This document shows positions 6,619 to 61,314 of a DNA stretch of 64,000 bases, piece by piece (the stretch's first letter is position 1; each line of letters begins with the position of its first letter). The notes under the pieces were generated by a model. It searched no databases, was not told the DNA's origin, and saw only the letters and a list, made by a program, of their open reading frames with translations. Source of the stretch: a bacterium (lineage in GTDB: Bacteria; SM23-31); contig OZ244870.1 of the NCBI GenBank assembly GCA_965221205.1, positions 1,763,241 through 1,827,240 on the forward strand, read 5' to 3'. A program made the position numbers and the translations under genes.

Positions 6619-7402
6619 GATACTTAGGTTATTTTCGGATCACGTGTTACAGTATACTTAGGATAGAAGAAAAAGTCACTAGAATTGATTGTTGGTACAT
6701 CATGTCCCGTTTGTTCTGGGGATCGTCTGTACCGTTTGCGTGATAATCGTTTTACAGGTACTCGATGTTCTTGTAAAGAGAGCCCGAAGCGATTCAAGGA
6801 CGCGATCTTGCTCTACTGCATTATGTTTCTTTGAAGATACCTGCCAATAAAGCTGCCAGGGGTCTTGGTTTTGGCGCCACGACGGTGCGAGGCAAATAGA
6901 TGCTTTGTCGACAGGAGATGTATGATTTCAGGAAGTGAGAAGACTTTCCGGCGAGACGAGATAGAATGTGCTGCAAGCTGCTTTGGTGGAAAACGTACAG
7001 GAACCAGCGGTCGCGGCAATGCCGGTACAATAAAGGTTTTCGGCATGGTGGAACGTCACGGGAAGCTTGTGACTGCCGCTTGATGAACGAGATCAGGGAC
7101 ACCGTTGCGAAAGGGAGCGTCTTCTCCACTGCTACGTTCCGTTCGTATACATCGCTGAAGTTTTTTGGTAACCAGCGTACGGTCGATCATAACACAGAGT
7201 GGATCACGGGACGTCGTCATAGTAACGGCCTTGAGGGGTTCTGGTCATATGCACAAGAAAGACGCTTACAGTACCATGGTGTCAGCAAAAATCATTGCCT
7301 GGTATACCGGAAGGAAATGGAATGGAGATACTATTACAGAAACCAAAATTTATTCCATCCTTTAATCAAAATTCACGTTCGTCCGCTTTTGACCTAATTA
7401 CC
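6619..7402 (+). mobile_element. IS1595-family (IS1016-like) element copy 1, inactivated transposase
   Basis: Imperfect terminal IRs (g[a/g]tacttaggtt... / ...gacctaattacc), a perfect 8-bp TSD tataataa (6611-6618, 7403-7410), a zinc-ribbon N-terminus and degenerate EIECDESYFGG / NGxEGFWS motifs; frameshifts and stops. Confidence 0.93.
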
Positions 7403-7560
7403 TATAATAATATAAAATAACACTACCAACACAAGCGGTATCCAAGTAAAAGTCAGCCTGTTTTTTAACATAGGCATCACTTAATACTGTTGATTTGTTT
7501 TCCATTTCTCATTCCACATATAGTTATAACAATTACCGTGTTGTTTACGCTATTTAAAAA

Positions 7561-8613
7561 TTATATTCCAAGCGTGTCTTTGGAAATATGCATGGTGACA
7601 TACATATGCGGTTTGTCAACCACTTCAGTAATATTAAGGTCTCCGGCAATTGAACAGAGCATATATGCTTCCTCTGAACTGAGTCCATGAACAGTGACGA
7701 GATAATCGATCATAAAACGGGTTGCTTTTGTTACCGCATGTTCAAGTGTTGTTCCATATGCCCCGACGGCGTAAAAATCATCAGTCTCATATTGCGGTTC
7801 TTTAATTTGGCGAAAATCATCACGTAATTCAATTTTATACTTTACCCTTACCGCAGTTTCAAGAGCAGTGCCACTCACCTCACCCAATCCTTGTGCCGCA
7901 TGAGCATCACCGACCGAAAATAAACCTCCTTCAACAAAAACAGGGAAATAAACGGTTGTACCCACAGTGAGGTATGGATTGTCCATATTGCCGCCGAATT
8001 CCCGAGGTTCAATAGCCGATTTAAGCGTATCAGTGTCTGGAGCAACAGCCATAACACCTAAAAATGGATTGAGTGGTACTGATATATTTTCGGAAAATTG
8101 TGCAACCAGAGAGTTTTGGGTAATAGGAAATGTTTTGACGATCGGTTCCGTAAAATCATCCGCCAAAAGACCAAATCCAGGGAATAGTGCAATCCAACCA
8201 TAGTCAGTTACTTCGATCTCAAGAATTGTAACTGCTAAGACATCACCGGGGTGTGCATTTTCAACATAAACAGGTCCGGTAAACCAAAATGGAAAATATT
8301 CATCGCCTTTTAATCCTGCATCAGGGTCCGTATCAACAATTTGACGTTCTGCTTTATGTTTTACAGTATATGCCTCAATTATAGAACCGGACGGAACAGA
8401 GATAACCGGCGGAATATCGTTTCCGAATCTGTCTTGATTATGTTCTTCAGTAATTATAAAATCTGATCTGGGTAGATTTTTAATATCTGATTGGTCGGGG
8501 AGATATTGCGAACAATTAAACAATACTAAAGACGATACGATGCATACACACGATATACATAAGCATTGAGATAGCGTGGTTCTCATTTTTAACTCCTCTA
8601 TTATAAAAGACAT
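7561..8613 (-). CDS. Acetamidase/formamidase family protein (true start possibly 8586, signal/lipoprotein leader)
   Basis: TGPVYVENAHPGDVLAVTI, PREFGGNMD, GDAHAAQGLGEVSGTALE, EEAYMLCSIAGDL. Confidence 0.9.
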   Translation of the reverse strand: MSFIIEELKMRTTLSQCLCISCVCIVSSLVLFNCSQYLPDQSDIKNLPRSDFIITEEHNQDRFGNDIPPVISVPSGSIIEAYTVKHKAERQIVDTDPDAGLKGDEYFPFWFTGPVYVENAHPGDVLAVTILEIEVTDYGWIALFPGFGLLADDFTEPIVKTFPITQNSLVAQFSENISVPLNPFLGVMAVAPDTDTLKSAIEPREFGGNMDNPYLTVGTTVYFPVFVEGGLFSVGDAHAAQGLGEVSGTALETAVRVKYKIELRDDFRQIKEPQYETDDFYAVGAYGTTLEHAVTKATRFMIDYLVTVHGLSSEEAYMLCSIAGDLNITEVVDKPHMYVTMHISKDTLGI

Positions 8614-8696
8614 GCCTCAATTTATCAGTGATTTGAAAATATTCGATAGAAAATTCTATATTCCATTAATACCGGAGTGAATTTGTTACCAAATTA

Positions 8697-9201
8697 TCAC
8701 CATGATTTGTCATGATTTGGTTGTACACCTAAAGCATCTGCAACACGGGTAATATAGCGTAAGTAATTGTTCCTACGCGCTTCGCTCTGTAAATGCTGAA
8801 ACACTTCAACATATTTCACATTCGGAGGATATGTAGAAACCTGAGTATAGCCGTTTTGTACAAGCCACACATTAACGAAAATATCACCATGTTCTGCAGG
8901 AACAAAGATATAGGCCAATAATCTTCCGTACCGGTCACGCTCTTGAGTATCGTATTCAAGCCTGACAGATTTACCCTCTACGAGCTTTCTATTGGCTTCA
9001 AAGGCGTATCCAACTTGATTGAGTCGGATGAACAGTTTCGGGTGTGTCAATACCTATATAACGTACTCTTTCACCGTTTTCAAGTTCAATTGTATCACTG
9101 TCAATTACTTTCGTGACTTTATGAGGGTATTCTGTCTGTGCGAATGAAGATGAGGAAAAAACAAAGAATAATAATGTGGCAATGAAAGTTAATCTTTTCA
9201 T
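8697..9201 (-). pseudogene. Thermonuclease (SNase) family protein, frameshifted
   Basis: VTKVIDSDTI...VRYIGIDTPE in one frame, DRYGRLLAY...VNVWLVQNGY in another. Confidence 0.88.
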
Positions 9202-9264
9202 GGGATTTTCCCTTCGTTAATTTTTAGGATTCGCTTTATAGCGCGGGTTATGTGGAAAATATAC

Positions 9265-10110
9265 TCATTCGATATAATTTAAGTCCAGATATAGCTGCCC
9301 ATCACGCTTAACATATCTTTGAATCAAACTATTTTTTTTGATCATATCAAAATCGGGTCTTTTAGCTGTATATGACATAAACACTATCACATCATCAAAA
9401 TTTTCTTTTACACTATCAATAAAAGCATCTAATATTTCAATATCATCACGATATTTACTGAATATTTCCCGATATTCTTTAGAGTATTGCATTTTCAATA
9501 AATACATGTCTAATCTTGATTTGTATTCTAAAAGACGGTATTCTTTAAGCAGAGTATCTTGACGCAAACTGTCAAATGGTGGAGTCATATCAATGTAAAA
9601 TGGAGAACTCTTATATGACTCGTCTAATTCTTCTAATTTCCTTCTTTCTACAATAGCATTCATTCTTTCAATTATTTCCGGCGTCACCTGCTCTCTTAGA
9701 GTAGGTTCTCTTACAGGAATTAAACTTTTTTTCTTTACCGGCGGGTCATTCGGTATATCCAACTTAATCAGAGGATTCTCTAAGAGCTCGCGTCTTTTTC
9801 GCTCTTCGTTTAGTAGTTTAGCTCTTTCGAGCGTCCTATCTGTTTCTGTTATTGTATAATATTTTTGAGGAGGCCGCTTCCACTCATCAGAATATATGTA
9901 GCTTGAATCAAATGGTTCATCAGTTACAAGATTCAGAATTATTTCAACATCTTTATTTTTTATACCTAGCCAATATTGTTCAACCTTGGACTCCATTATT
10001 CTCTCAAGATCATTCTTGGGTGTCCAGCTTGAAGTATTGTTATTGGCCTTGCAATATATTATAAAAATCAATACAGAATACATCAAGCATCCAAATCGTA
10101 TGTTCTTCAT
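9265..10110 (-). CDS. Hypothetical exported/lipoprotein cargo
   Basis: 281-aa ORF, N-terminal hydrophobic stretch ending in Cys, GGAAG RBS. Confidence 0.7.
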   Translation of the reverse strand: MKNIRFGCLMYSVLIFIIYCKANNNTSSWTPKNDLERIMESKVEQYWLGIKNKDVEIILNLVTDEPFDSSYIYSDEWKRPPQKYYTITETDRTLERAKLLNEERKRRELLENPLIKLDIPNDPPVKKKSLIPVREPTLREQVTPEIIERMNAIVERRKLEELDESYKSSPFYIDMTPPFDSLRQDTLLKEYRLLEYKSRLDMYLLKMQYSKEYREIFSKYRDDIEILDAFIDSVKENFDDVIVFMSYTAKRPDFDMIKKNSLIQRYVKRDGQLYLDLNYIE

Positions 10111-10143
10111 TCATCTTCCTTTTTCAAATATTTCTAAATATTA

Positions 10144-10182
10144 TTATAAGTCCACTGAATATTTCACCACGCGATGAATAAA
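10144..10182 (-). pseudogene. Orphan 3' end of a second S24 repressor homolog (FIHRVVKYSVDL*)
   Basis: 11/12 aa identical to the C-terminus of the 11037-11609 repressor (FIHRVVKYSGDL*), with several synonymous codon differences. Confidence 0.85.
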
Positions 10183-10239
10183 AAATCCGCTGTTAATTTT
10201 TAGGATTCGCTTTGAGGAAATCATTTGCGAATTCGTCTA

Positions 10240-10581
10240 TTACGTCTGCTTATAAAAGAATTCATTTGGTAAAATTTCAGCAAAAAAATAAATATAGGCT
10301 ATTATTGCAACAACAACATATATCGCGATTCCAATACTATACGCTCTTCTTTCTTTAACACTACAAACTTCATCTGCTATTTTCCTTGTACCACCTATCC
10401 ATGGGAATGAAATTATTACTAAACTCATGATATTGAACATAATATTATTTAGTGTAGCTAAATAGACAAAAAGAATTGCAAAAGCCCCTGCGAAAAAGCA
10501 CCAAATAAAGGGTTTTCCAAGCCATAATGAAGATGCTATAAATGACCAGTTCTTTATAAGTTTAGTAATATTTAAAGACAC
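10240..10581 (-). CDS. Small multi-pass membrane protein (cargo; start uncertain)
   Basis: Three hydrophobic segments; AT-rich. Confidence 0.55.
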   Translation of the reverse strand: MSLNITKLIKNWSFIASSLWLGKPFIWCFFAGAFAILFVYLATLNNIMFNIMSLVIISFPWIGGTRKIADEVCSVKERRAYSIGIAIYVVVAIIAYIYFFAEILPNEFFYKQT

Positions 10582-10695
10582 TAAAACTGTAATAATAAAA
10601 ACCAGAAATTCCTACATTACTTACCTAAAATCGTTTAATCCGGATTTGCGGCTAAATAATATAAAAGCATTTCATCAATAATAGTCTTTAATGAT

Positions 10696-11019
10696 TTATT
10701 TGTCCTCGGGTTCTGCCTGTTCGATTGGGAGCCATTCTAAAGTGGGCTTACTATCTTTTATGACCATCCAAAACATCCATGTTTCACCTGTCCGTTTATC
10801 GAATTTAATTAGACCATTCATGTCTTCTAAACCATCACCAATAGCGATTTTCCATTCTGCTTGGATTATCTGGTATTCTTTTTCTTGAATTCTATCAATT
10901 CTATCCATTAGATCGGACAATTCTTGGTATCGTTGTTCTCCAGTTATTTGAAAACTGAACGATAATGTTGTTAATACAAGGATAAGAGATATAACAAGAA
11001 TTAATGTTTTAGTTTTCAT
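10696..11019 (-). CDS. Hypothetical secreted protein (cargo)
   Basis: Signal peptide MKTKTLILVISLILVLTTLSFS, AGGAGG RBS directly after the repressor stop. Confidence 0.75.
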   Translation of the reverse strand: MKTKTLILVISLILVLTTLSFSFQITGEQRYQELSDLMDRIDRIQEKEYQIIQAEWKIAIGDGLEDMNGLIKFDKRTGETWMFWMVIKDSKPTLEWLPIEQAEPEDK

Positions 11020-11036
11020 TATTCGATGTCCTCCTT

Positions 11037-11609
11037 TTACAAATCTCCTGAATATTTGACAACGCGATGAATAAATACAAATTCGCTTATATCATGGACG
11101 CATATTTCATAACTTTCATTTTCAGGAATTAGATGAACTGAATTGCCAATTTGTTTAAATCTCTTAATTCCAGCATCGCTGTTCTCTTTTATCCTGAAAA
11201 CAACAATACTATTATTGGTAACTTCTGAATTAGGACTTACGGTAACATCTGTTCCGTCTTTAAGTAGGGGTTTCATCGAATCACCACGAACGACAAGAGC
11301 GTACGCGCTAAGATTCCTAACATTTGACGATATGTAACGATCTGAATGCCCGACAATGAACTCTTGATCGGTGAAATCGGCCGGTTCTCCGGCTGGAATA
11401 TCATTTAAAACTGGAATGGGCCTTAATTTTACAGGGTGCAAATTATCCCACCAGCCGGGGTCTTTAGGTATGAGGAATGTCGTTTGTTGGCCTTGTTGCT
11501 TTACACCCACTATTTCAGCAAGCTTCGACGGGGTATATCCTTTGATTTTTCTACGGAAAATTATGCCTTTTCCAATGATATTTTTTAAATCAAATGATTT
11601 ATTTTCCAT
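11037..11609 (-). CDS. CI/LexA-like repressor with S24 peptidase domain; HTH appears internally truncated
   Basis: RRKIKGYTPSKLAEIVGVKQ (start of an XRE HTH), IPAG cleavage site, VRGDSM (Ser), GIKR (Lys), LIPEN. Confidence 0.88.
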   Translation of the reverse strand: MENKSFDLKNIIGKGIIFRRKIKGYTPSKLAEIVGVKQQGQQTTFLIPKDPGWWDNLHPVKLRPIPVLNDIPAGEPADFTDQEFIVGHSDRYISSNVRNLSAYALVVRGDSMKPLLKDGTDVTVSPNSEVTNNSIVVFRIKENSDAGIKRFKQIGNSVHLIPENESYEICVHDISEFVFIHRVVKYSGDL

Positions 11610-11715
11610 GAGTAAATACTTAATTTAATAAAAATTTACAACATTATTGATGTATATTACCAACAAGACAAGATGCCGACAACGTGATTGCATGTAATAT
11701 ACAAGGAAATGTAGC

Positions 11716-11916
11716 ATGAGTAAAGAACAAAATGATATTGGTGTTCAAATTCGGATTCGCAATAAAACTCATCGACAGATAGGAGTTTTAAGAAAACTCG
11801 ATAAGCGCAGTTATAATATTGATGAGATCGATTTTATTGTCGAGAAGTATTTTGATGAACATCCGGATGTTATTCCAGAAATGAAAGAATCAATCAAACA
11901 AGAAGTCAATGCTTAG
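11716..11916 (+). CDS. Small divergent DNA-binding protein (Cro position, RHH-like)
   Basis: 66 aa, divergent from the repressor, VQIRIR beta-strand-like N-terminus, AAGGA RBS. Confidence 0.6.
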   Translation: MSKEQNDIGVQIRIRNKTHRQIGVLRKLDKRSYNIDEIDFIVEKYFDEHPDVIPEMKESIKQEVNA

Positions 11917-12011
11917 TAAGATATTTATTCTAATTTTTTTTGTCAACGTGTTTCGGTTCGTGGAATTTTTACAGAATCCACGAATTCGTGGATTTGAAAA
12001 ATAAGGTAAAT

Positions 12012-12425
12012 ATGAGTGAAAAAATCGATATAAATATTGAATACATTCACAGATACGGTTCATTAAAAGACTTGGTTCAGTCATGGGTACAAAATATACC
12101 CGAATCATATTCTATGAGTATTGCGGAAATAGCGAGGCGAATGAAGGTTCCGGAAAACACATTAAGAGACTGGTTAATCAGAGGATTTCCTGTAGCAGCA
12201 ATTGTATTGTTACCACAGTTTAAGCAATTCATAGAGTTTCTTATAGAGCTCCACCACAAATTAAATAAGGGTGACTTTGATCCACCCGAACCAATAGATG
12301 AATTGGATGTTGAACGCCTATGGCTGGAATTAAAAGTCTCCAAAAAGAATAATAATCCGGTACGTGCACGAAACGCAAAAAATGAACTAATGTTAAAAAT
12401 CCGTGAGTTTGAAGTACCAGTGTAA
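12012..12425 (+). CDS. HTH-containing phage-type regulatory protein
   Basis: MSIAEIARRMKVPENTLRDWL helix-turn-helix. Confidence 0.7.
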   Translation: MSEKIDINIEYIHRYGSLKDLVQSWVQNIPESYSMSIAEIARRMKVPENTLRDWLIRGFPVAAIVLLPQFKQFIEFLIELHHKLNKGDFDPPEPIDELDVERLWLELKVSKKNNNPVRARNAKNELMLKIREFEVPV

Positions 12426-12441
12426 GAAGAGGATATGTCAA

Positions 12442-25994: not shown

Positions 25995-26211
25995 AAAAAG
26001 CCATTATATTAGAGATTTTCTGAGTGTTTAATATCAATACAGTAAAAATATCTTATGATGATAATATATAATGTGATCATAATCGCTTACTTTTCAAGAA
26101 CAATTTGTTAATTCCTTTTTACAACACATCCATATAATTTTTTTTGTCTCATAGTCTGGTTGCTTTATTTCTTAATAATCTTACTATAATAACATACAAT
26201 TCGAGGTTCCT

Positions 26212-28290
26212 ATGTTTAAGCGAGCGATTTTGTTATCATTTGCATTAAAAGCAATCATAGATATTCTCTATCTCAATGTCTCTTCGGCGCAAGGAACTCC
26301 CTTTATACCAGAAACATTATCGATTGATCTCAATAATGAGCTGTCAGGAGAAAGAAGTATTGAACATATCAGGTGGATGTCTCATTATCACCGGCCAAGC
26401 GGTTCGAGCGGATTGTGGACTGTTGCACAAATGGTGCATGACTGGGCTCGGGAATACGGTCTTGAGAATGTACAAATAATTAAACAGAAATTTGATGGTA
26501 CTAATTGGGATGCTCATTCAGGTGAACTCTTGGTCATTGAGCCGAAAGAGATAAAACTTGGCAGTGTTATGCCGAAATTGCAGTTTCAGTCCCGAATAAC
26601 ACGCATTCTGCTCACGAAACAGTAGAACTCGTGGATATCGGTCAGGGTACATCGGATGAAGATTTTGAAGGAATTGACGTAACTGGAAAAGCTGTGCTCA
26701 CTTCTTCTGCTCCTTCTGCCATTATGCAGGCCGCTGTATGGCAGAGAGGTGCTTCAGGCATCGTATCCTACTCAAACAGCGGCCGAACGCAATGCATGAT
26801 TTCCCCGATCAAGTGGCTTACAGCAGAGTGCCTGTCGAAAATTCAGCAGGAGAACCATCCGGATAGGCATTTATGATCTTGCCTCGTACCGGTACTATAC
26901 TCAAGAATCTCATTAAACAATCGGGAAATGAAAATGAGTCGGTCATGCTTAAGGTAGATATTGAAACAGAATTTAAAGAAAATCCGGAACAAGGATATGT
27001 GTGGGGTGAAATCAAAGGAACCGAGATTCATAATCAGGATATCGTACTGACGTCTCATCTGCAGGAAGAAAGGCCATCCGCAAATGACAATTCCATTGGA
27101 AGTGCAAATATGGTTGAGATTGGCAGAACAATGAATCGGCTCATCAAAGAGGGCAGAATACCACGTCCGAAAAGGGATATTACGTTTTACTGGGCAAATG
27201 AAATAAGCCCGGAAGAAAAAAATTCTATGCTTATCAATATCAATCAGGATATCGTTGGAGCAAAACAGAGTATGGGTTCTCGCGTTCAGCATATTATCCG
27301 GACGCCACATTCAATTCCGAGTTATTTAAGCGATGTCATTGAAAGTATTACAGAATATGTAATAATGACCAACAGCGCTTTTCTTGCGGCAGGTGATGCC
27401 GGAACCCCACAGCCTTTTTCAAAACCAATTTATTCACATCTCGGTACACGAGAACGATATAATGCGATGATCGTACCTTATTTTGACAGTTTCGACCATT
27501 TGGTGTTTATCGAGGCTGTAGTCGGAGTACCGGGAGTTGGATTAATTAACTGGCCAGATACTTACATACATTCAACTGCTGATAATCTAGATAATATAGA
27601 CCAGACTCAGCTCAAAAGAAATGCCTTTATTGTTGCTGCAAATCACTATATATAGCAAATTCGGGAAATGAGGATGTGCCTGCAATTACATCAGAAGTAT
27701 ATTCACGAGCATTAATAAGAATTGCAAAAGATCTGAATACAGCATTAAACCACATACAAAAATCTTCTAAAGATAATCTAATACAAAACTATGGAGAAGC
27801 GAAAAATTTAATTGCTCAGGCTATTATAAGAGAAACAAAAGCGGTAGAATCTGTTTTGGTGTTCGCCAATTCTCCAGGCAGTATTTTGTATATACAAAAA
27901 CGAATCAGTGATTTAGAAAATCGGGAAGATGATCTGATTGCATCATTGGATGATATTGTATGTTCTTGTTTCAGATGACAAAAGGGTCCCTGCAATAAAA
28001 CTATCCACCTTTGACAAAAAGATGAGTTCAAAAATCCCTGCTATCAACGGGACTATTGAAGAATACTTTCAAAGACGGGGAAGAGTGCGAGGTGGAGGCA
28101 AATTACATGGTCTGATGATTTGGAAGTGTTATAATTTGCCAATGGCATAAATTCATATCTTGATATTTATAATGCTGTTCATGCCGAAGTGCTTTCCGCG
28201 GGTGAATTCTATTACGGTACGGTTACGAAACAGGCCGTTGCTGACCTTCTCGATGCAGCCGTGGAAGGAGAAGTGTTACGACTGAAATAA
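26212..28290 (+). pseudogene. M28 peptidase with PA domain, fragmented
   Basis: DIGQGTSDEDFEGIDVTGK (PA), TSHLQE, ANDNSIGSA, ININQD, DH, YIHSTADN; multiple frameshifts. Confidence 0.82.
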
Positions 28291-34032: not shown

Positions 34033-34821
34033 GGTACGTAGGTTATTTTCGGGTCACGTGTTACAGTATATTTGGAATGGAAGAGAAAGTCACTATATTT
34101 ATTGTTTGTACATCATGTTTCTTTCGTTCTGGGGATCGTCTGTACCGTTTGCGTGATAATCGTTTTACAGGTACTCGGATGTTCTTGTAAAGAGAGCCCG
34201 AAGCGGTTCAAGGACGATCTTGCTCTACTGCATTATGTTTCTTTGGAGATACCTGCCAATAAAGCTGCCAGGGGTCTTGGTTTTTGCTTCACGACGGTGC
34301 GAGGCACATAGATGCTTTATCGACAGGAGATTTATGATTTCAGGAAGTGAGAAGACTTTCCGGCAAGATAAAATGTTATGCAAGTTGCTTTGGTGGGAAA
34401 CGTACGGGAACCAGCGGTCGCGGGAGTGCCGGTACAATAAAGGTTTTCGGCACTGTGGGACGTCACGGGAGGCTATTTACTACGATGTGACTGCCGCTTG
34501 ATGAACGAGATCAGGGACACCGCTGAGCAAGGGAGCGTCTTCTCCACTGCTCCGTTCCGTTCGTATACATCGCTGAAGTTTTTTGGTAAACAGCGTACGG
34601 TCGATCATAACACATAGTGCATCACGGGACGTCGTCATAGTAATGGCCTTGAGTGGTTCTGGTCATGTGCACAAGAAAGACGCTTACAGTACCATGGTGT
34701 CAGCAAAAATCATTGCCCAGTGTACCGCAAGAAAATGGAATGGAGATACAATTACAGAAACCGAAATCTATACCATTCCTTTAATCAAAATTCACGTTAG
34801 TCCGCTTTTGACCTAATTACC
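34033..34821 (+). mobile_element. IS1595-family element copy 2, inactivated
   Basis: Colinear with copy 1; ends ggtacgtaggtt / gacctaattacc; TSD taatatta (34025-34032) / taatattt (34822-34829). Confidence 0.93.
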
Positions 34822-36674: not shown

Positions 36675-39600
36675 TTATTTAATAAACGTCATCCGTTTTA
36701 TATCGGTAAACGTTCCCGCTTGAAGCTTCATAACGTAAAGACCTGATGACACTAACTGCCCAGTATTGTTCTTCCCATCCCATATAATTGAATTCTCACC
36801 AGCGGGCATGGTCGTATCAATGAGATGTCTCACTTCCTGACCGAGAGCGTTATATATCTTCAAAGAGACGTGTACAGGACGCGGCAGATTGAATTGGATT
36901 GTCGTTGTCGGATTAAATGGATTAGGATAGTTCTGTTCCAAAATGAAATTATCTGGAATAGGTAACTCTTCATCTTCAATACTATCAACACTGGTAATCA
37001 GCTCTTCAGTATTGCTCGCAATTGCCCAAAGAGCAAAGTGACCGGTCGTCACCGTTATTGTGTTATTATCCGTATCGACGGTGCTTGGAAGCACATGCCA
37101 GATAAATCCACGTGCATCGAGTGAATCGTATACGCTCACGACAAGACTGTCTTCACTAAGGCTCAATCCTGTCACTGTTTCCTCATTATATCCAAACGTT
37201 AACTCTGCTTCACTATTGTGCACGTCGAGGTTTATGTCAATATAATGCACGGCATTTGTGAACGCAGGCACCGTTGGAAATTCAGTCGAAATTTTCGAAG
37301 TCGAGACCTGCTTGACCGAAATGATCTGATCTGCGACTTCGCCGCCTGTAAAGGCAATCGACAGTGAAACACTATTCGAAAAATCCAGTGATATGCTCGA
37401 TCTATCCGCCGGGATAGGTATATCGTTCTGTATATCGGGATCGGCCATGACAACCACATCTTTTGCGATGACCGCAATCGATGTAGTGAGTGTGTCAGCC
37501 GCCCCATCTGTATTTTCTGCACTGATCGAAACGGCAATATCAGACCTGACATCGGAAACACCGGGAGTCCCTCCGACAGCACCGTTCTCACCGACCGTCA
37601 TCCAGTCGGGGCCCGAAACTTTTGCAAAGGTAATAATATCGTCTGCGTCCGGATCGGTCGCTTTCACTGTGTCGTCATACGCAACGCCTTCGGTCGCATC
37701 GGCAAGCGATACTGTTGTGATGACCGGCGCATCGTTGACGTCCGTGACCTCGATGGTCACGTTGATGCTGTCCGTGCCGCCGCTGCCGTCGGAGACCGTG
37801 ACCGTCACCGAGTAGGAAGATTTCGTCTCGAAGTTCAGCGCGGCGTTGGTCTGGAGCTGGCCGCTGGTCGAGACGATGTCGAAGGACGCTGCGTTCGTCC
37901 CGTCCAGACTGTAGGTCAGCGTGTCGTCAGTGTCCGTGTCCGTCGCGGCGATGGCGGTGCCGATGTTCTGGCCCGAGGCCGTGTTCTCGGCCACGCTGCG
38001 CGTGATGCTGGTTCCATCAGTGAAGGTTGGGACGTTGTTAGTCGGCGGGCTCGTGCTTCTGCTGAAGGAGAGGGCGTCGTTGCCCACCGCGTCCCGGATC
38101 GGATGGGCTGCCGGCACCGTATAGGCCACCGTGACCGTCTCGCCGCTCGCCGCTGCCGAAGCCAGCGTCAGCGTCACTGTCATCCCGCTCACGTGCACCT
38201 GCGACACCGTGCGCTCCGCTCCCGCGACCATCACCGTGAAGGCGTCTCTTTGCGGCGTCGAGTCCTCGTTGAGCGTCTCGTCGTAGGTCAGCACCACTCT
38301 TCGGGCGCCATTCACCGTCCACTCCCGGAGGATCGGCTTGACGCCGTCGACCTTGTGGCCCTTCCATTTCCCGGCGTAGGGGTAGTCGAGTACGGCGTCG
38401 TTGCCGGTTGAATCCCGAATGCTGCCGCCGTTGAGCCGCACGGAGTGGGCTTCGGTGCTCACGCCGTCCATGTCCAGGTCCCCGTCGACGACCGTGTACA
38501 CGAACTGAGGGCTCTCGCCGTAAGCCAGAACATCCGGCATTTTGCCCGTGTACACGGCCTCTTTCTTGTCGTTCCCCAAAATGAACTCGATGTACGGTGT
38601 CCCCGACACCTTCACCTTCTCGGTCAACAACAGGAGAAACTCAATGGGCGCACTCGGGCTATCCGGCACGTGCGTATGGACAATTTCGCCAGCGTTATTT
38701 CGAGCGCTATTTATGGCGACACTTAGGATGGTCGGCGCCACGCCGTCCACCTTGTGCGCCGCGTCGGTGGCGGCCCCCGTATGCGTGAGCCCCGCCTGCG
38801 TCGTCTCGCCCTGCTTCACGATCGTGCCGCCGTTGAGCGCCAGGCTCCCCGCCGGAATACTCAGCCCCTCGGCGTCCTCGTGGCCGCTCGCCACCTGGTA
38901 GCGAAACACCAGCGCCGTCGTGCCGCTGCCACTCGCGTACGCCGCGTCGGTGGCGGCGTCGCTCAGGGCGCCCACCAGCAGGCGGATCGTCGGGACCCCG
39001 CTCACCGTCACCGCCATGTTCCAGGTCACCGTGACCTCGACTTGGTCGTCCGCCTTGAAGAAGCCGTTCTGGCCCGCCGCCGGGCTGTTGCTGAACGCCA
39101 CCGAGATGATCGCCGGCTCGTTGTTGGGGGTGAGCGTCACCGGGCTGCCCACCGCGGTCGCAATGCCGACTAGTCGCAGGGCACCACCACTACCCTCAGA
39201 CACGGTCGTCGGCACCTATGGCGCCATGCCCAAGGTGACCGTCGCGCCCTCCCCGGAGGAGGTCACCGTGATCTCCTCGCTTGTCGTGTGGCCTGCCGGG
39301 ACCGTGACCGAAGACACGCCGGCCGGCAGGGTCCCTCCCGCCACCCTGATCGTGGTGGTCATGGCGAAGGGCGCGCCCTCGGCAACCTTGACCACCACTT
39401 TGTTCGCGGAGACCTGTTCCGGAATCATGGTGAACGTGAAGTCCGCGCTTGGATTCATATGCAGCCGCAAGCGCGACAAGCGGGTGAGCCCAGCGAACAC
39501 TCCCGCCGGCAACGTAACCAACTCGTTTTCGCTCAGATCCAGACTGATGAGGTTGGTGAGACCGGCGAACACCCCCGCCGGAAGTGCAGCCAAGTCATTC

Positions 39601-40028
39601 CCCTCCAGACCCAGAAATATCAGGTTGAGGCCAGCGAACACCCGTGCCGGCAACGTATCCAACTGGTTGTACTCCAAATCCAGCACCTCTAAGTTGTCGA
39701 GGCCGGCGAACACCCCCACCGGTACCGTACGCAACAGGTTCCCCAACAAGCTCAGGCCCTTCAGGCTGGTGAGCCCTGAGAAATCGTCGGCTTTCAGGAC
39801 TGAGATGCCCTTGTCCGTTAGGTCAAGATCCTCAATCGCGGCCAGATGGTCTGCCGTCACATCGCCGCAAGCACTGACCGAAGCGGCCGCCACAATCGCG
39901 TCGCGCACTTGCCCGGTGCGGTCGCAGACTCCCTGCGCCTGCGCTTGCACCGGTGCTGTAGAGAACCAAAAGAAGCCAAGCAATAAGGACCATGAAAAGA
40001 TTGCAAATAGAACTTGTCGATTAGACAT
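36675..40028 (-). pseudogene. Large surface protein (LRR + Ig/SwmB-like + cadherin + C-terminal sorting domain) interrupted by a single in-frame TAG
   Basis: Signal peptide, LPAGVFAGL LRRs, VVLTYDETL SwmB-like repeat, cadherin (SVAENT...LNFE...DVNDAP), LEQNYPNPFNP...IIWDGKN; ORFs abut across TAG 39216-39218. Confidence 0.85.
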
Positions 40029-40251
40029 AATGGAGGTTCTTCATTTAGTATATATTTCCAATATCAATTTTCAATATAATGTATATAAAACCACAGTATT
40101 AAGGTATATATACGATTTTTACAAGTGTTTTCTGTTCCTCAATCAAGCATTTTCGAAATCTTATCGCGTGAGTAAATTCTATTATAATAAATCTATAATA
40201 AATCCAAATAGCATGTCAAATCCAATAATGACTCGGGACTCGGGGAGTTAC

Positions 40252-55181: not shown

Positions 55182-55242
55182 CGTTTCCATTTGCTGTTAG
55201 AGGATGATTTTTTTATACGATACTTTTTGAGAGGGTACATTC

Positions 55243-55968
55243 ATGGCGAAGATACCGGGAAAACCGGACGAAATTTTTGAGGAATTCAAAAACAATTTTA
55301 ACGGTCTTTTTAGCGACGATCTTGTTTCTGCGATCCTCTACGGGTCTGCAGCACGCGGTAAATATGTTCCGAAAAAGTCGGACATCAATTTTCTGATCGT
55401 TCTAACCGATGAGGGCATTGAGCGGTTCCATTCCGCGCAGCCACTCGTCAAAAAATGGAAGAAACGGAACATTTCGATCCCGCTGTTCCTGACAGAAGAC
55501 TACATCAAAAGTTCGCTTGACTCGTTTCCGATAGAGTTTCTGAATATTTCGAGTTATTATAAGGTGATTTTCGGTAGAGATATTTTCCAAGACATCGAAA
55601 TCGGCAGGAACGATCTCCGGCTCCAGCTTGAACGGGAGATGAAAGGGAAACTGCTGAACCTCAGACAGGCGTATTTTCAGGGGGCTGGCAATCCGAAAGC
55701 AGCGTCGGTGCTGATCCACGATTCTCTCGGTGCATTCCTTTCGCTGTTTCCCGCGATTCTTACCGTAAAGAATGAACAATTGTCAGCCGATCCATTGGAA
55801 AATATAAAGAAAGTCGCACAGTTGTTCGAACTTGATGTCAGTCTGCTCGAACGGCTCTTCCACATACGGACAGGACAGGAAAAACCGAAAAAAGCAGAAT
55901 CGGATGAACTGCTGCGGCAGTATATAACACAGATCCGGTCGCTTGCACTTCAGACCGATGCGCTGTAG
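55243..55968 (+). CDS. Nucleotidyltransferase-domain protein
   Basis: LYGSAARG...SDINFLIV, DSFPIEF. Confidence 0.85.
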   Translation: MAKIPGKPDEIFEEFKNNFNGLFSDDLVSAILYGSAARGKYVPKKSDINFLIVLTDEGIERFHSAQPLVKKWKKRNISIPLFLTEDYIKSSLDSFPIEFLNISSYYKVIFGRDIFQDIEIGRNDLRLQLEREMKGKLLNLRQAYFQGAGNPKAASVLIHDSLGAFLSLFPAILTVKNEQLSADPLENIKKVAQLFELDVSLLERLFHIRTGQEKPKKAESDELLRQYITQIRSLALQTDAL

Positions 55969-56014
55969 GTGCATTAATAATGTTTTGAGTTGTCAATCAT
56001 TAAGGAGTTATACA

Positions 56015-56587
56015 ATGTCAGCAAAGAAAGTAATTATTGGAATACTGGTCTTTATCGTGGTTGTCGGTATTTGGTCTGCTTCTTCCCTGAAAAATACCTA
56101 TAACATCCTTGTCGTGCTCGATGAGGGTACGCAGACAGCCTGGTCACAGGTCGAAACGGTGCTCCAGCGACGGTTCGATCTCATTCCCAATCTGGTCGAA
56201 ACGGTCAAAGGATTTGCACAGCAGGAGCAGGACGTACTTATCGGCGTAACAGAAGCACGTTCAAGAGTGGGACAGGCACAGACTCCCCCTGAGCAGATGG
56301 AAGCGAACAACCAGCTTACCTCGGCACTCGGCAGGCTGATGGTTGTTGTCGAGCGATATCCCGACTTGAAATCGAATCAAAATTTTATCAGGCTGCAGGA
56401 TGAACTTGCCGGTACCGAGAACAGAATTGCTGTCGAGCGCCGCCGTTACAACGAATCAATCGGTGGATACAATTCACGGTTGCGCAGTTTTCCGACTGTC
56501 CTCATTGCTGAGATGTTCGGTTTTGAAACCAAGACTCGGTTCGAAGCCGCCGCCGGTGCAGAAGACGTCCCACAGGTCGCGTTTTAA
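56015..56587 (+). CDS. lemA: LemA family protein
   Basis: LQRRFDLIPNLVETVKG, ERYPDLKSNQNF, LAGTENRIAVERRRYN; AAGGAG RBS. Confidence 0.95.
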   Translation: MSAKKVIIGILVFIVVVGIWSASSLKNTYNILVVLDEGTQTAWSQVETVLQRRFDLIPNLVETVKGFAQQEQDVLIGVTEARSRVGQAQTPPEQMEANNQLTSALGRLMVVVERYPDLKSNQNFIRLQDELAGTENRIAVERRRYNESIGGYNSRLRSFPTVLIAEMFGFETKTRFEAAAGAEDVPQVAF

Positions 56588-57007
56588 TATTATATCTTTC
56601 ATCTTTGCGAAAAGTGTGTTGTAAATACAGCGAAATATAAGATAGATATGCAGCTACATAAAAATCGTTCAGGAAATCTGATTTGATTATTGATAGGAAT
56701 GCTTACAGAAAACTTTTGCCGCACTTGGACAACCTTCCTAAAGCAGCGTTGGCAGAGATGTTGGAACAGGGGTGGGTCAGCTCTCCGGAACTCGAATCAT
56801 TTGGCTATGACAGAATGTCAAAAGTAACTTCCGATCTGAAGAAAAGCAAATTTAGTAGAATTGAAATTTGCTATTTATCATCCTTTGTAGTCATAGCCCG
56901 CTTCGCCGTCGTCGCAGAAAATGCCTAATAAATTGAGTTTTAGGGGATAGCATACAGTAGGTGAAAAACTTTCTTTATGAATGTATGAGGTAGATATTTT
57001 GGGGAGG

Positions 57008-57790
57008 CTAAAATGATTCAAGTTTTTCTTTAGCAATTTTCTTAAATTTTAGATGCAGTTTATCCTTGAATTCTTTGCCCACTTCATCAAAAGTATTTAA
57101 TAATTCCGGGAAGGTATTTTTACCACCTAAAAAGTCCCAATATTGATCACCAACTAAAAAATCGTTCGGAGAGTCCATCATTCCAACTTCAGTAAATCTT
57201 GAATATGGTTTGGGATAATAAGGATTATAGGGAAATGCAAGATAAACATTTATTTCTTCGCGTTTGCGGGCAACCCATTCAAGTAATTTTGTTTTACTTT
57301 TTTCAAAAACATCAATGTTAGGTTTTACGGTTTTTATTTCAAAATAGTATTCTTTATTATTTCTCTTCATATAAAAGTCGGCAATGTTCCCTGACTTTTG
57401 ATATTCCCCATCTTTTGCTGAAATTTTTAAAATCTCATTTATTTCATCGGATATATTTGCTTTTCTTGAGCCATTACGTAATTCGGAGACAATTTTATTT
57501 ACTGCAGATTTTTGTTTTTTTGATATAACTCCACCGACACCATAATTTCTAAAACACTCTTCAGAGTTTTCGGAAGCTAATATTACTGAAACATCCTCGT
57601 ATATTGACATTCCCAATGTTGTTGCAAGAGAATGAATAAAAGAATAAGCAGCGATTTTTTCATTGTCTTGAATTAAGCGAGCTAGAAATGGCATTGAAGT
57701 AGTTTCTCTACCATATGAATGAAGTTTAGTCTCAATTTTTTTGGAAATAAGTTCTTTGATTTTAAATTCTTGATTCTTTGATACACCCAT
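57008..57790 (-). CDS. Type II restriction endonuclease, TdeIII/MjaII family
   Basis: MPFLARL, SFIHSLATTLG, ADFY...FEIKTVKPN, AFPYNPY, YWDFLGG. Confidence 0.87.
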   Translation of the reverse strand: MGVSKNQEFKIKELISKKIETKLHSYGRETTSMPFLARLIQDNEKIAAYSFIHSLATTLGMSIYEDVSVILASENSEECFRNYGVGGVISKKQKSAVNKIVSELRNGSRKANISDEINEILKISAKDGEYQKSGNIADFYMKRNNKEYYFEIKTVKPNIDVFEKSKTKLLEWVARKREEINVYLAFPYNPYYPKPYSRFTEVGMMDSPNDFLVGDQYWDFLGGKNTFPELLNTFDEVGKEFKDKLHLKFKKIAKEKLESF

Positions 57791-57795
57791 TTTTC

Positions 57796-58895
57796 TCACA
57801 TTAATTCTTCTAAACCAGTGTAATATGGATAATGTGTTTTAAGTGCAACACTATCCTCTGCTATTATAACATTTTCACGCATTGTTTTATTTAAACCTTC
57901 AAGAACACATTGGTAATGATAATATTTTCCATCAGAAAATTCATGATGAGAATGTGCAAGAGTGCTAGCTCTTGATCGTGCGTATTTAGTATATTTGCAC
58001 TCACCATTGATAATTTGTGATCTTGAAAAATATGTGCATTCTTTAACACATGAAACTTTTACATTCTTTAGTGCATTTCCAACGATTTTCTACAAGCAGG
58101 ACATCTATCAGAGTTTCTTGAATTGATCGTATCAATTGTGGCGGTTGGAATAGCAGTTTTTAAGGAGAATGATCCAGATTAAATTTCCTTTTTCATTCCA
58201 ACTTCAATTCCATAAATTCTTTTATCATAAGTTATAAGTAAAAAATCAGGAGGGACTAAATGATCATTTAAGCCATATATTTTTTGATGCAATAAAAGAG
58301 GTATTATAAATCCCAAATCATTTCTTAAAAGAAAAATATACGCTAATAATTCATGCCACAACCCACCTGCTGTTTTTGGCAATAAGTTATCAAAATATTT
58401 TGATAACTGCACGGAAGCCGTCGAATCAGGTACACCTAGTATACTTTCAAATTCTCTTAATTCCTTAAACAGAGGTTCATTTTCTATCGATGGAAGACCA
58501 TCAGCTAAAGAATCTAAATATGTATTGCTTCTATTTATATTTATGGTAATTGATTCATAACACATTAATAGATTTACAAAATGAAGAATACCTCGTATAA
58601 AATTTTGCTTTCTATAGGGATTGTTTTTAGATGTGCCAATTGAATAAAATCCTCTGCCTAGTAAAATATATTCAATTATATCTGATAAAACCATTTTTCT
58701 CTCTTCTTGATTGTATAATTGATCAAACAATTTTATATTACCAAATGAAATAAGCATTCCCTCAAGATTTTCGTTATATAAGCCAAAATCCATTTGCTCA
58801 TATGGTAAGTTATAAGACTCTGATTTTATGAAAACGGAATGAAGCGTATTGAGATGAGCACTAGATTTATTAACATTATTATATGCAGGTTCCAT
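57796..58895 (-). pseudogene. Uncharacterised PD-(D/E)xK-like protein with Cys/His-rich C-terminus, inside the RM operon
   Basis: WHELL, PPDFLL, IEVGMKKEI*SGSF (TAA 58179-58181), DRCPAC, then a frameshifted tail ending ...YTGLEELM* at 57796. Confidence 0.65.
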
Positions 58896-58900
58896 AAATA

Positions 58901-60478
58901 CTATAATTCCTTTAAATGAAAAATTATTTCAGAATATACTGCCCTATCTTTTTCTGCCCTGTTTAATACTGGTCTTTTATATTGATTAACTATTTTCATA
59001 CCTGCTATATCAGCAATTTTAGGGTAAAGTCCATGTTTGTCATTAGCAACAAGAAATATGTCGTAATTCTCTTGTAAGTATATTTTTGATTTTACGAGAA
59101 CCTCTGCAATTCCCCTTATATATGACTCCCTAGCTTCTTTTCCTTGACCATGATATAATCTTCCTATTTCAAAATTATCATTTCTCTCAAATCCAAAAAG
59201 ATCATATGAATAAGCGTGTTGTTCATGATAATCGATTAAACCAACATAAGGAGGTGATGAGAATATACCTTTGAATTTTTGTTTTTTTAGAAGTTTGCAT
59301 AGCTCAGGGTTTTTTTTGTCAAGTGCAGAAAAAAAATTAATATTTCTACTATCTCCAGTGAGGCAGACTTGCATAGTATCAGTTCTTAATTTTTGAAATG
59401 TTGACAGTCTTTTACTAGTATCCTTATAGTATCTATTCCACCAATTTCGTATAGTAAAGAGAGGTTTACATATTTTACCATGTTTCTTGCAATAATATGT
59501 ATTGATTACAGGTTCAACTAATGTGGCTAAGTCCGCATGTGTTGTTGCTCTACAGGATCTAATAGTACGACTTAGAGCAATGCTTAAGATTTTTTTTGTA
59601 GATGGGTTTGAAATCGATTTAATTTGATCAAACATAAAATTAATTTCATCTCTAATTACTTGTAAAAACCATTTATCCAGAAAAGAATTATCACTATTTT
59701 GAAGTAACGTTATTTTATATTCATCAATTAAATTTTGATAAATTTTGATAAATTCTTTTTCCTTTCCTAATCCGTATTGTTTTTCATTAATGATTTTTTT
59801 CCGGACTTTATGTTTATATTCAGGAGAGGGAAAATGGAGTTTGTTGAAAATTTTTAATTCTTCAAGTAATTCTTGCTCGAATTCAACATTATTTTTGTCA
59901 TGTTGAAATGTAATAAGATTACGCGTGATTTTTCTCGATTCTTCTAAAATGTCTTGAAAATTATATCGATCAATTTTAACATTGCTAATTAGCGTGTTAA
60001 ATACTGATACATCAACACCAACAGCATGAATACCCAACTCGTTAGCTTGGACTAATGTTGTACCACTTCCACAAAAAGGATCTAATACAATATCATTGGG
60101 GAGGAAAAACACTCTGTTTTTAAATTCATCTGTTTTATCATCTAAGAAGTATTCTACTAACTGAGGAATAAACTTGCCCTTATATGGATGTAGTCGGTGT
60201 ACATGTTTTGTGGTTTCTACCTCTTTACAATCTGAAAATGACAATTTCCAGTTTAAGTCATTTCCTAATTTATTTTTCCATTTTTCTTCTTGAGAAATAT
60301 TATTGGAATCATAGTATATTATCAAATCCGCTTTATTCACCATTGGACTTCCATTATGATCTATATTGGGAATCCGTCCATATTGAACTAGGTAAAAGAT
60401 ATTTGATACAGTTACATTTTTGTTCAAATATGCTGACGCAAATTGACTAGCTTCCTTATAATTTAATAACTCTACCAT
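58901..60478 (-). CDS. DNA methyltransferase (alpha order, SPPY; likely m4C) with N-terminal HTH-like region
   Basis: HRLHPYKGKFIPQL, LDPFCGSGTT, SSPPY. Confidence 0.9.
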   Translation of the reverse strand: MVELLNYKEASQFASAYLNKNVTVSNIFYLVQYGRIPNIDHNGSPMVNKADLIIYYDSNNISQEEKWKNKLGNDLNWKLSFSDCKEVETTKHVHRLHPYKGKFIPQLVEYFLDDKTDEFKNRVFFLPNDIVLDPFCGSGTTLVQANELGIHAVGVDVSVFNTLISNVKIDRYNFQDILEESRKITRNLITFQHDKNNVEFEQELLEELKIFNKLHFPSPEYKHKVRKKIINEKQYGLGKEKEFIKIYQNLIDEYKITLLQNSDNSFLDKWFLQVIRDEINFMFDQIKSISNPSTKKILSIALSRTIRSCRATTHADLATLVEPVINTYYCKKHGKICKPLFTIRNWWNRYYKDTSKRLSTFQKLRTDTMQVCLTGDSRNINFFSALDKKNPELCKLLKKQKFKGIFSSPPYVGLIDYHEQHAYSYDLFGFERNDNFEIGRLYHGQGKEARESYIRGIAEVLVKSKIYLQENYDIFLVANDKHGLYPKIADIAGMKIVNQYKRPVLNRAEKDRAVYSEIIFHLKEL

Positions 60479-60595
60479 ATTATATTATGCAATTCCTTCA
60501 ATTATCTAAGAATATGAAAAAATAGTCAAAATTTATAAAATTCACATTAGTAGAATTAATCAGAGAATGCATCATAGTCAAGCAATATTTTTCAA

Positions 60596-61314
60596 GGTAC
60601 TTAGGTTATTTTCGGGTCACGTGTTACAGTATACTTAGGATGGAAGAAAAAGTCACTAGATTAATTGTTGGTACATCATGTCCCTTTTGTTCTGGGGAGC
60701 GTCTGTACCATTTGCGTGCTAATCGTTTTACAGGTAATGGATGTTTTTGTAAAGAGAGCCCGAAGCGGTTCAAGGACGATCATTCCTACTGCTGCATTAT
60801 GTTTCTTTGGAGATACCTGCCAATAAAGCTGTCAGGGGTTTTGGTTTTGGCTCCACGACGGTGCGAGGCACATAGATGCTTTATCGACAGGAGATTTATG
60901 ATTTCAGAAAGTGAGAAGACTTTCCGGCGAGATAGAATGTGATGCACGCTGCTTTGGTGGGAAACGTACGGAAACCAGCGGTCGCGGCAGTACCGGTACA
61001 ATAAAGGTTTTCGGCATGGTGGAACGTCACGGGAAGCTATTTACTACGATGTGACTGCCGCTTGATGAACGAGATCAGGGACACCGCTGAGCAAGGGAGC
61101 GTCTTCTCCACTGCTCCGTTCCGTTCGTATACATCGCTGCAGTTTTTTGGTAAACAGCGTACGGTCGATCATAACACATACAGTACCATGGTGTTAGCAA
61201 AAATCATTACCTGGTATACCGCAAGAAAATAGAATGGAGATACAATTACAGAAACCAAAATCAATACCATCCTTTAATCAAAATTCACGTTAGTCCGCTT
61301 TTGACCTAATTACC
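60596..61314 (+). mobile_element. IS1595-family element copy 3, inactivated, about 70-bp internal deletion
   Basis: Ends ggtacttaggtt / gacctaattacc; lacks the NGxEGFWS segment; flanks tttttcaa / ttaattaa do not form a TSD. Confidence 0.93.

Follow-up and report, generated by a model that had tools for sequence, protein, structure and literature searches.

Introduction

In fungi, repeat-induced point mutation (RIP) changes C to T at CpA in each duplicated copy independently after the duplication and continues for as long as the repeats exist, and in diversity-generating retroelements (DGRs) mutagenesis is specific for the adenines of one strand, which are changed to any base. The decay of bacterial insertion sequences (IS) is usually taken as neutral erosion. 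Described here is a family of dead IS1595-type elements, three copies of which lie in a stretch of 64,000 nucleotides (the window, G000:C1:1763241-1827240) of a bacterial chromosome, and which lost its transposase largely by one change class, A:T>C:G. The genome of the window, G000, consists of one 3.78-Mb contig with a G+C content of 42.2%, and a T9SS sorting domain in a gene nearby suggests Bacteroidota. The change class as such is known but its setting, restricted to one element, is unusual, and a limited literature search turned up no account of a bacterial IS that alone carries A:T>C:G-specific changes.

The family resembles the targets of fungal RIP in that a transposable element was hypermutated and inactivated by one dominant class of change, but differs in that the change is A>C, the changes are shared between copies and the process was over by the time the family held 48 copies. 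As in DGRs adenines were targeted, and strand-coordinated tracts are possible; unlike in DGRs both strands were changed, the product was C in 49 of the 68 changes at A:T pairs and the reverse transcriptases of G000 belong to retron type VI and to the RT-Toprim I-C type. The almost purely A:T>C:G spectrum of the family stem, on both strands, is that of the mutT/8-oxo-dGTP signature, except that it is found here in one IS lineage and a few stretches of 1-2 kb, with a load of 11% of the A:T sites, and not genome-wide. A dead element at 48 loci with target duplications, microdeletions of 7, 10, 27 and 70 bp and mosaic copies also resembles trans-mobilised non-autonomous IS and eukaryotic gap-repair products, and for bacterial non-autonomous IS derivatives a class-specific point-mutation load is, to our knowledge, unreported. 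With 48 copies and two intact outgroups, the family constitutes a polarised data set for testing the alternatives.

Results

The A:T>C:G signature of the family stem

Copies of the family were collected by a whole-genome BLAST of G000, in which 59 pieces were merged into 48 loci, and a DNA search for relatives in 41 genomes (G000 and 40 relatives) gave matches in 5. Changes were polarised against two intact open reading frames (ORFs), one of 255 aa in genome G001 (locus L021) and one of 252 aa in genome G002 (locus L013), and stem changes were counted at sites where both intact copies agree. Judged by the identity of host genes to those of G000, G002 is a close sister (about 92%) and G001 is distant (about 69%); the G001 assembly was scored as 9% contaminated.

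The stem leading to the family consensus carries 78 polarised changes. A:T>C:G makes up 49 of these, 25 as A>C and 24 as T>G, and affects 49 of the 439 A:T sites or about 11%; the remainder consists of 9 T>C, 7 A>G, 3 each of A>T, C>G and G>A, 2 C>T and one each of G>C and G>T. The corresponding fraction was 1/16 on the lineage of the intact G001 copy (Fisher p=3.7e-5 vs the stem), 26/314 among singletons within the family (p=2.4e-23) and 244/2,428 among four-fold-site differences between G002 and G000 (p=5e-28), and in host DNA the A:T>C:G share is about 8-10%. The excess, noticed in a preliminary description of the three window copies made from the sequence alone, is present at all codon positions and in the inverted repeats. 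The signature is a real and statistically overwhelming anomaly, and it is well supported that the family lineage underwent an A:T>C:G-specific episode, now ended, that is not seen in the host chromosome overall.

A three-taxon comparison alone cannot root the changes, and polarity was therefore checked with 64 intact proteins of the family from a database search. The consensus and the intact copies differ in 81 codons, 61 of them non-synonymously, which implies that the changes built up without constraint at the protein level. At these 61 codons the 64 intact proteins carry the intact residue in 51 cases, often in 64/64 sequences, and the degenerate residue in 8, with 2 ties, so that the direction of change assumed in the preliminary description holds at the majority of these codons. 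The intact elements have a G+C content of 35-37%, and the degenerate consensus has reached 44.6%. Since the shared changes predate the insertions, the flanks of the copies carry no information on whether the bias ends at the repeat border; the inverted repeats themselves were changed.

Written as T>G, the changes depend on the 3' base, with 27/159 before T, 13/89 before C, 8/113 before A and 1/77 before G, or 40/248 before a pyrimidine vs 9/190 before a purine (p=1.8e-4). When the surroundings of mutated and unmutated A:T sites were compared, the +1 base differed at p=0.001 and four other positions at p=0.014-0.041, uncorrected for the 10 positions, and no strong extended motif was found around the mutated A:T sites. 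The triplet CTT (8/35) was among the most hit; the counts are 4/16 for CTC, 11/65 for TTT and 6/41 for ATT. A hand count further hints at runs on one strand, with 15 A>C vs 4 T>G in codons 74-174 and 5 vs 13 in codons 182-253, in regions picked post hoc and uncorrected for base composition. The human mutational signature SBS17b consists of T>G at NTT, and its cause is debated. The T>G change and the preference for a 3' T are shared with SBS17b as far as the consulted part of a report on it goes (10.64898/2026.08.21.746158), but the organism is another one and a 3' C is also favoured here. The consulted part of a Pseudomonas aeruginosa mutT study associates the triplet GAA+TTC with oxo-dGTP mutagenesis, states that Pol IV avoids A/T-flanked sites and places the mutations in clusters at particular chromosomal positions (PMC12318082). 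The preference of the IS stem for a purine 5' of the mutated A overlaps with GAA+TTC as given there and is thus partly alike; in contrast to the Pol IV pattern of that text, A/T-flanked sites were changed here (TTT and ATT, above), and G000 has no intact Y-family polymerase today. T>G after runs of G, as in the consulted part of another report (10.1101/2022.10.28.514265), was rejected as a match, a 5' G being the least-hit context (6/71).

The element and its copies

The preliminary description had placed three copies of the element in the window, and these are confirmed, all of them lying on the + strand (Table 1). They are direct repeats, 88-95% identical in register with a mean column identity of 91%. 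The profile PF12762 (DDE_Tnp_IS1595) matches copies 1 and 2 with 40.9 and 33.9 bits (cut-off 27), a stop codon lying inside the match of copy 2 and none inside that of copy 1, and the database homologues of the intact 252- and 255-aa ORFs carry PF12762 as well. The zinc-ribbon PF12760 is present in some close intact homologues; the consensus has C35G at a position that is Cys in 64/64 sequences of the family. The ends of the intact element are GGTAATTAGG and CCTAATTACC, and short terminal inverted repeats with an 8-bp target duplication are, after ISfinder, expected of IS1595. The flanking 8-mers are perfect in 4/28 copies examined and have at most 1 mismatch in 10/28, with a mismatch at 1/8 positions in copy 2, and the intact copies (4 in G002 and 1 in G001) have 0-2 mismatches in theirs. 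A T>G in the right inverted repeat (TAATGACC) is found in 14/28 copies listed. Among the 32 copies of at least 690 bp in which private A>C/T>G changes were tallied, copy 1 has the highest number (4).

Table 1. Coordinates of the window copies with their ends, and of the single-copy stretches of G000 with an A:T>C:G excess (positions are those of the window unless G000 is named)
Feature	Position	Strand	Remarks
Copy 1 (locus k17), dead IS1595-type element, 784 bp	6619-7402	+	Weak DDE_Tnp_IS1595 match at G000:1770317-1770571
Left target-site duplication, copy 1	6611-6618		TATAATAA; direct reading, 0 mismatches
Right target-site duplication, copy 1	7403-7410		TATAATAA; direct reading, 0 mismatches
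Left inverted repeat, copy 1	6619-6628	+	GATACTTAGG; intact form GGTAATTAGG; family A>C at position 5 and a private G>A
Right inverted repeat, copy 1	7393-7402	+	CCTAATTACC; ancestral form
Copy 2 (k18), 789 bp	34033-34821	+	Left inverted repeat GGTACGTAGG, extra T>G; DDE_Tnp_IS1595 match at G000:1797735-1797992
Copy 3 (k19), 719 bp	60596-61314	+	70-bp internal deletion vs copies 1 and 2
Single-copy A:T>C:G stretch	G000 ~854.7-856.7 kb		45 vs 2
Single-copy A:T>C:G stretch	G000 1,324-1,325 kb		31 vs 3
Single-copy A:T>C:G stretch	G000 1,330.3 kb		17 vs 0
Single-copy A:T>C:G stretch	G000 2,709-2,711 kb		54 vs 12
Single-copy A:T>C:G stretch	G000 2,718.3 kb		27 vs 4

Several details of the preliminary description could be compared with the family as a whole. 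Its single exception to the bias, a Y>C change, is TAC>TGC at codon 109, and its contrast of a left GGTAC with a right GGTAA inverted repeat, with a further T>G in copy 2, was also found. The changes it had listed as limited to certain copies are so for gat>gct and aaa>aac (copy 1) and acg>ccg (copies 2 and 3), but cgc, which within the window occurs in copy 3 only, is the majority form of the family. It had reported three acidic residues as lost; two of them (E in DES, D in YTD) are indeed gone from the consensus, where the D in DES is still present.

The majority consensus is a pseudogene with no frame open, and its stops together with 10-bp and 4-bp deletions are common to all copies examined; with stops and frame-shifting deletions throughout, neither the consensus nor any copy encodes an intact transposase. 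That the family is a dead, non-autonomous IS1595-family element at 48 loci, and that all copies descend from one already frame-shifted master, are both well supported. The family transposed while dead, as the deletions are common to the copies examined and 8-bp flanking repeats with at most 1 mismatch are kept in 10/28. A helper transposase was not found in G000, where the best other IS1595 reading frames are just about 39-41% identical.

The copies of G002 are 74% identical to the window copy and have the intact 252-aa ORF, and G001 has one 83% identical copy with the intact 255-aa ORF and a few degenerate copies. No copy of the degenerate family was found in G002, from which it follows that the insertions are later than the split of G000 and G002; the four-fold distance between these two is 0.175, placing the split at about 0.1 substitutions per site and lineage. 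Dating of the insertions by decay of the target duplications was dropped since four young G002 copies already show 0-2 mismatches in 8. Two truncated copies, k04 and k24 (G000:C1:506345-506861 and 2130459-2130976), are almost identical at 117 family-variable sites and are probably part of a recent segmental duplication.

Host chromosome, other repeats and single-copy stretches

For the host comparison 2.8 Mb of G002 were taken, of which 1.736 Mb aligned uniquely to G000. Among the 138,566 differences in this DNA, A:T>C:G counted from G002 to G000 amounts to 11,215 vs 10,489 in reverse, and at 160,302 four-fold sites the numbers are 2,747 vs 2,500 among 28,041 differences. The host excess is thus just 7-10%, whereas an epoch that altered 11% of neutral A:T sites would give a large asymmetry, and a genome-wide mutator is therefore rejected, as it already was on a first sample of 164 kb, in agreement with the preliminary description, which had set the signature apart from a mutT defect acting on the whole genome. 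A mutT-like epoch throughout the G000 lineage would fit with the lack of a detectable MutT equivalog, and the genomes are metagenome-assembled, where mis-polished repeats could in principle yield unlinked variants. Beside the near-symmetric host counts, the first of these is opposed by the old fragment k01, the 5' segment of which has 0 private A>C where the family gained 10 at the same sites. An artefact of assembly or polishing, which would have undone the preliminary description, is opposed by the recurrence of the family, variants included, in two assemblies, among proteins of other assemblies and in short-read contigs of 4 runs from 4 studies. These contigs confirm the family and the variant positions but not linkage over a whole copy, and in run X3 two long contigs over window positions 6300-6650 and 7280-7700 have zero differing letters, so that the ends of copy 1 are exact. 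We give a global mutator or an artefact next to no credence.

Other repeats are likewise free of the bias: among 2,128 scored BLAST paralogue pieces of G000 that are not internal to the family none is biased, and of 7,216 overlapping 800-bp segments none has at least 12 A:T>C:G changes at a share of at least 0.30. Families F1440 and F907, with 9-11 copies of about 80% identity, have 16-19% A/C-type variants. Family F1627 (10 copies) has 33% A/C-type among its common variants with no asymmetry of the major allele (43 C/G vs 34 A/T). In F1283, a young family of 20 full-length copies, 0/14 variants are of the A:T>C:G class, judged from the within-family variant list alone, and the suggestion that repeated DNA in general is affected fails on these repeats. 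In G001 and G002, dead fragments of the unmutated element type that are present in few copies show ordinary decay; fragment L038 of G001 has the ancestral base at 21/21 family A>C sites and 5/50 A>C among its private changes.

The confinement to IS that the preliminary description had proposed is not strict. In a binomial scan of 1,750 non-overlapping 1-kb segments between G000 and G002, 5 single-copy segments have a weaker excess of A:T>C:G in the same, forward direction at p<1e-4 and 0 in the reverse direction, where 0.18 are expected, and at p<1e-3 there are 7 forward vs 1 reverse. The stretches (Table 1) have 17-45 vs 0-6 A:T>C:G changes per segment with the other change classes at normal levels, and none lies within 7 kb of a family copy. 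A G at the +1 position makes up 18% in these stretches, 33% in the genome background and 2% on the IS stem, so that their +1 context leans to the pattern of the IS. The single rRNA operon, at 883 kb, is about 27 kb from one of the stretches, and no conclusion was drawn from this. The one reverse segment at p<1e-3 falls in the window itself (about 26170-27170; G000 1,789,413), where among 121 differences G000 has A/T and G002 C/G at 22 sites and the opposite at 3, which either A>C in G002 or C>A in G000 would give.

Cessation of the process

Relative to the consensus the 314 singletons consist of 111 C>T, 80 A>G, 45 C>A, 32 A>T, 26 A>C and 20 C>G. With 26/314 A:T>C:G this is an ordinary spectrum, from which it follows that the process has stopped. 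The share of A>C by derived-allele frequency is 9% (below 3% frequency), then 13%, 18%, 50%, 67% and finally 58% (above 90%), and 33 A>C sites are at >90% frequency in the family. The A>C changes are thus shared by descent or conversion and are not independent draws in each copy.

These data bear most directly on a dedicated RIP-like or defence-like system that converts A:T to C:G in IS or repeats, which was the interpretation of the preliminary description. Such a system would suit a bias that is restricted to a family and inactivating, that destroyed the zinc-ribbon Cys and many invariant residues and touched the inverted repeats. Old fragments also have short isolated segments that escaped A>C, and short repeats escape RIP. 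It is nevertheless largely refuted by the ordinary spectrum at the highest copy number, with 48 copies present, which contradicts mutation directed at repeats after duplication, and the shared sites contradict mutation of each copy on its own. The mutated sites have no strong extended motif, other repeats are unaffected, single-copy stretches exist, and the search for a responsible gene found retron-type reverse transcriptases only, no DGR and no candidate. We regard a dedicated system as very improbable. From the preliminary description the signature and its scope, other than that of a mutT defect, are kept and the RIP-like process is not. The evidence excludes a global mutator, an artefact and ongoing repeat-directed hypermutation, and three explanations remain.

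Mosaic copies and possible biased gene conversion

In a maximum-likelihood tree of 36 sequences a long stem is followed by a comb-like radiation, in which the degenerate copies of G001 are nested. Of 52 sites with variants of intermediate frequency, 47 need at least 3 steps on this tree, and identical 7-bp and 27-bp deletions occur in copies that are far apart on it. The linkage of common variants, indels included, falls from r2 0.29 at 1-5 bp to about 0.08 at 6-40 bp and then to the permutation null of 0.04. Unlinked variants and deletions shared across the tree imply that the copies exchanged sequence or were rebuilt from one another, that is, they are mosaics. In the old fragments k01, k06 and k47 one segment is family-derived and another ancestral, and they may be true intermediates or recombinants; in k01, 10/11 still-ancestral sites are A>C sites and 0/11 private changes are A>C. 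The number of derived A>C alleles is not correlated with private divergence (Spearman -0.15, p=0.40).

MutY corrects A.G to C.G. One of the three explanations builds on this and takes A>C mutations to have arisen at an ordinary rate, with A.G mispairs in heteroduplexes between copies turned into C:G by an adenine glycosylase in very short patches, so that C:G swept through the family and A:T was erased. MutY-type correction and GC-biased conversion agree with the family in direction, specificity, dependence on allele frequency, unlinked variants and restriction to DNA with pairing partners. The A>C share climbs with allele frequency (9% to 58-67%), and C>A is almost missing among the high-frequency alleles. 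At distances above about 40 bp the variants show hardly any linkage, all four gametes are seen in 66-90% of site pairs, C/G is the major allele at 7/9 common A/C-type polymorphisms, and the copies have a private divergence of 0.6-4.0% vs a pairwise one of about 10%. The bias is absent from single-copy DNA overall, from a family too young to hold mismatches (F1283) and from the families of about 80% identity, and an ORF resembling the N-terminal part of the MutY glycosylase is present in all three genomes. Conversion best explains the frequency gradient, the near-absent C>A and the unlinked variants.

On the other side, very-short-patch repair cannot spread the frame-shifting deletions common to all copies, and thousands of events would be needed, yet the copies are still about 10% apart. 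The single-copy stretches, with 17-45 extra A>C per 1-2 kb, have no ectopic partner and stay unaccounted for, as do the hinted strand-coordinated runs, and the bias in transitions is weak. The frequency effect is strong for A>C vs C>A and weak for A>G vs C>T, and a past shift of the spectrum would give the same pattern. We know of no description of MutY conversion driving some 50 substitutions through a bacterial IS family. On balance conversion of this type is considered unlikely as the cause. Were it true, bacteria, in which biased gene conversion is debated, would provide an unusually clear example of it with a specific mechanism; the consulted part of one source states that it is not observed in bacteria (PMC8153448).

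Possible residence of the master in another background

In the second explanation the dead master resided for long in an A:T>C:G-prone background, either a mutT-deficient host or a plasmid or phage whose polymerase accepts 8-oxo-dGTP, and then seeded the G000 chromosome. The signature, A:T>C:G on both strands, is of the mutT-defect type and the host chromosome does not have it genome-wide, both as expected from such a history. The family also crosses distant hosts: G001, with 69% identity in host genes, holds the closest intact relative together with the degenerate copies nested in the G000 radiation, another element is 97% identical between G000 and G001, and degenerate ORFs with the same derived residues are found in other assemblies. 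G000 and G001 share mobile DNA at 92-97% identity (e.g. L012 2901-3798 vs G000:C1:3702253-3703154) despite the low identity of their host genes, which together with the nested copies points to a recent exchange of mobile elements between the two lineages.

The G000 chromosome itself holds insertions in which part of the A>C changes is missing, which requires the master to have had repeated access to G000 while it was mutating. The single-copy stretches in the G000 direction (7 vs 1) are unexplained unless imported from a mutator relative, and the old dead fragments of G001 decay ordinarily (5/50 A>C). No donor was found; one pattern scan of a metagenome gave 0 matches, and a protein scan of a genome collection gave only G001, G002 and one distant match. 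Residence elsewhere is accordingly thought improbable. If true, the footprint of a mutator host or replicon would mean that mobile DNA records the mutational regime of the genomes it has passed through.

Error-prone repair synthesis as a possible cause

The reading preferred here, tentatively and as a possibility well short of probable, is that the changes stem from repair of breaks or gaps that was error-prone in the manner of 8-oxoguanine, was linked to the DNA transactions of the element and used its other copies as templates. It takes up, in modified form and as a working hypothesis, an alternative of the preliminary description in which the changes arose during transposition. Cuts by the transposase at the ends of the element would start repair, and repair would resynthesise tracts of the element, often with another copy as template. 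In a genus with no recognisable MutT, the repair polymerase would put dGTP or 8-oxo-dGTP opposite a template A, and the misincorporated nucleotide would be fixed as A>C. The process would have ended with the loss of the helper transposase, and the single-copy stretches of 1-2 kb would be other sites of repair. Such synthesis would account for the restriction to one lineage, for the regional tracts, for mosaic copies in which variants are unlinked and microdeletions occur, for the end of the process and for the single-copy stretches. Of the explanations considered it best unites family restriction, regional mosaics, microdeletions, cessation and single-copy stretches.

The following points weigh against it. 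The tie of the changes to breaks or transposition, like the polymerase and the oxidised nucleotide, is one that we infer. Derived alleles of the C>A and C>T classes are depleted at high frequency, with 1 C>A event at a frequency of at least 0.3 vs 35 below 0.1, and this depletion is predicted by biased conversion and not by misincorporation. Private A>C changes, 26 singletons in all 48 loci together, do not exceed the background share of the host, which implies a low error rate per event, so that the stem needs about a hundred serial repair cycles with almost no side branches. The alternative to so many cycles would be a very error-prone step. Strand-coordinated tracts would favour repair synthesis, but those hinted at above come from a post-hoc count uncorrected for composition. 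The single-copy stretches are directed vs G002 only and could equally be C>A in G002. The 3' context disagrees with the 3' A that is preferred in E. coli mutT according to the consulted part of that study (10.1101/2022.10.21.513255). Finally, a broken IMS gene (G000:C1:2001952-2002397) is all that G000 now has of Y-family polymerases, and G002 keeps two intact Y-family genes yet has fewer stretches (1 reverse vs 7 forward at p<1e-3).

A more far-reaching version, which we hold to be rather doubtful, is that transposase-induced breaks are repaired by tract-wise synthesis that is highly error-prone at adenines, so that the element gains A>C with each round of activity and sites of chromosomal repair do so now and then. 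The IS family would then mutate itself to death, in outcome a transposition-coupled bacterial counterpart of RIP, with or without a dedicated factor. Repair synthesis, if indeed linked to transposition, would curb IS bursts from within and produce clustered mutations locally.

Repair genes and reverse transcriptases

The best matches to TIGR00586 (MutT) in G000, G001 and G002 reach 42-43 bits vs a cut-off of 97.9, which is weak evidence for its loss since only 3/14 control genomes pass. The MutY-like ORF of all three genomes, 279 aa, covers the N-terminal two thirds of the model with 160 bits, below the cut-off of 286.5, and MutS is intact in all three. G001 and G002 have two intact Y-family polymerases each (ORFs of 387-433 aa; L187 and L188), and G002 has in addition a broken orthologue. 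A link between the loss of the Y-family polymerase in G000 and the end of the process is conjecture.

A DGR was considered as the source of the changes and rejected, since both RVT_1 genes of G000 are of retron type, no pair of template and variable repeats was found, both strands are changed and the product is mostly C. One of the two genes belongs to a type VI retron (an HTH protein and a 274-aa reverse transcriptase; L191, G000:C1:880709-884236) just upstream of the single rRNA operon, and the other is an Ec67-like RT-Toprim (type I-C) retron gene of 596 aa (L190, G000:C1:3443124-3446744).

Other observations

The 1,283-bp element of family F1283 (e.g. C1:35849-37131) has a 297-aa ORF and, beside its 20 full-length copies of 99.5-100% identity, more partial ones, and unlike the dead IS1595 family it was evidently active recently. 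In the window, positions 37000-40200 form a GC-rich island of 53-65% G+C in a genome of 42%. The island takes in a 270-aa ORF and, next to it, the N-terminal half of a cadherin/SWM-repeat protein that is intact, T9SS-sorted and 846 aa long. The T9SS gene beside the island was considered as a further A>C-affected gene and rejected, with 2/28 unique changes A>C and no excess. The GC-rich parts have no paralogue in G000, the C-terminal 363 aa of the 846-aa protein have several, and the island has the appearance of foreign DNA that was joined to a secretion tail native to the genome.

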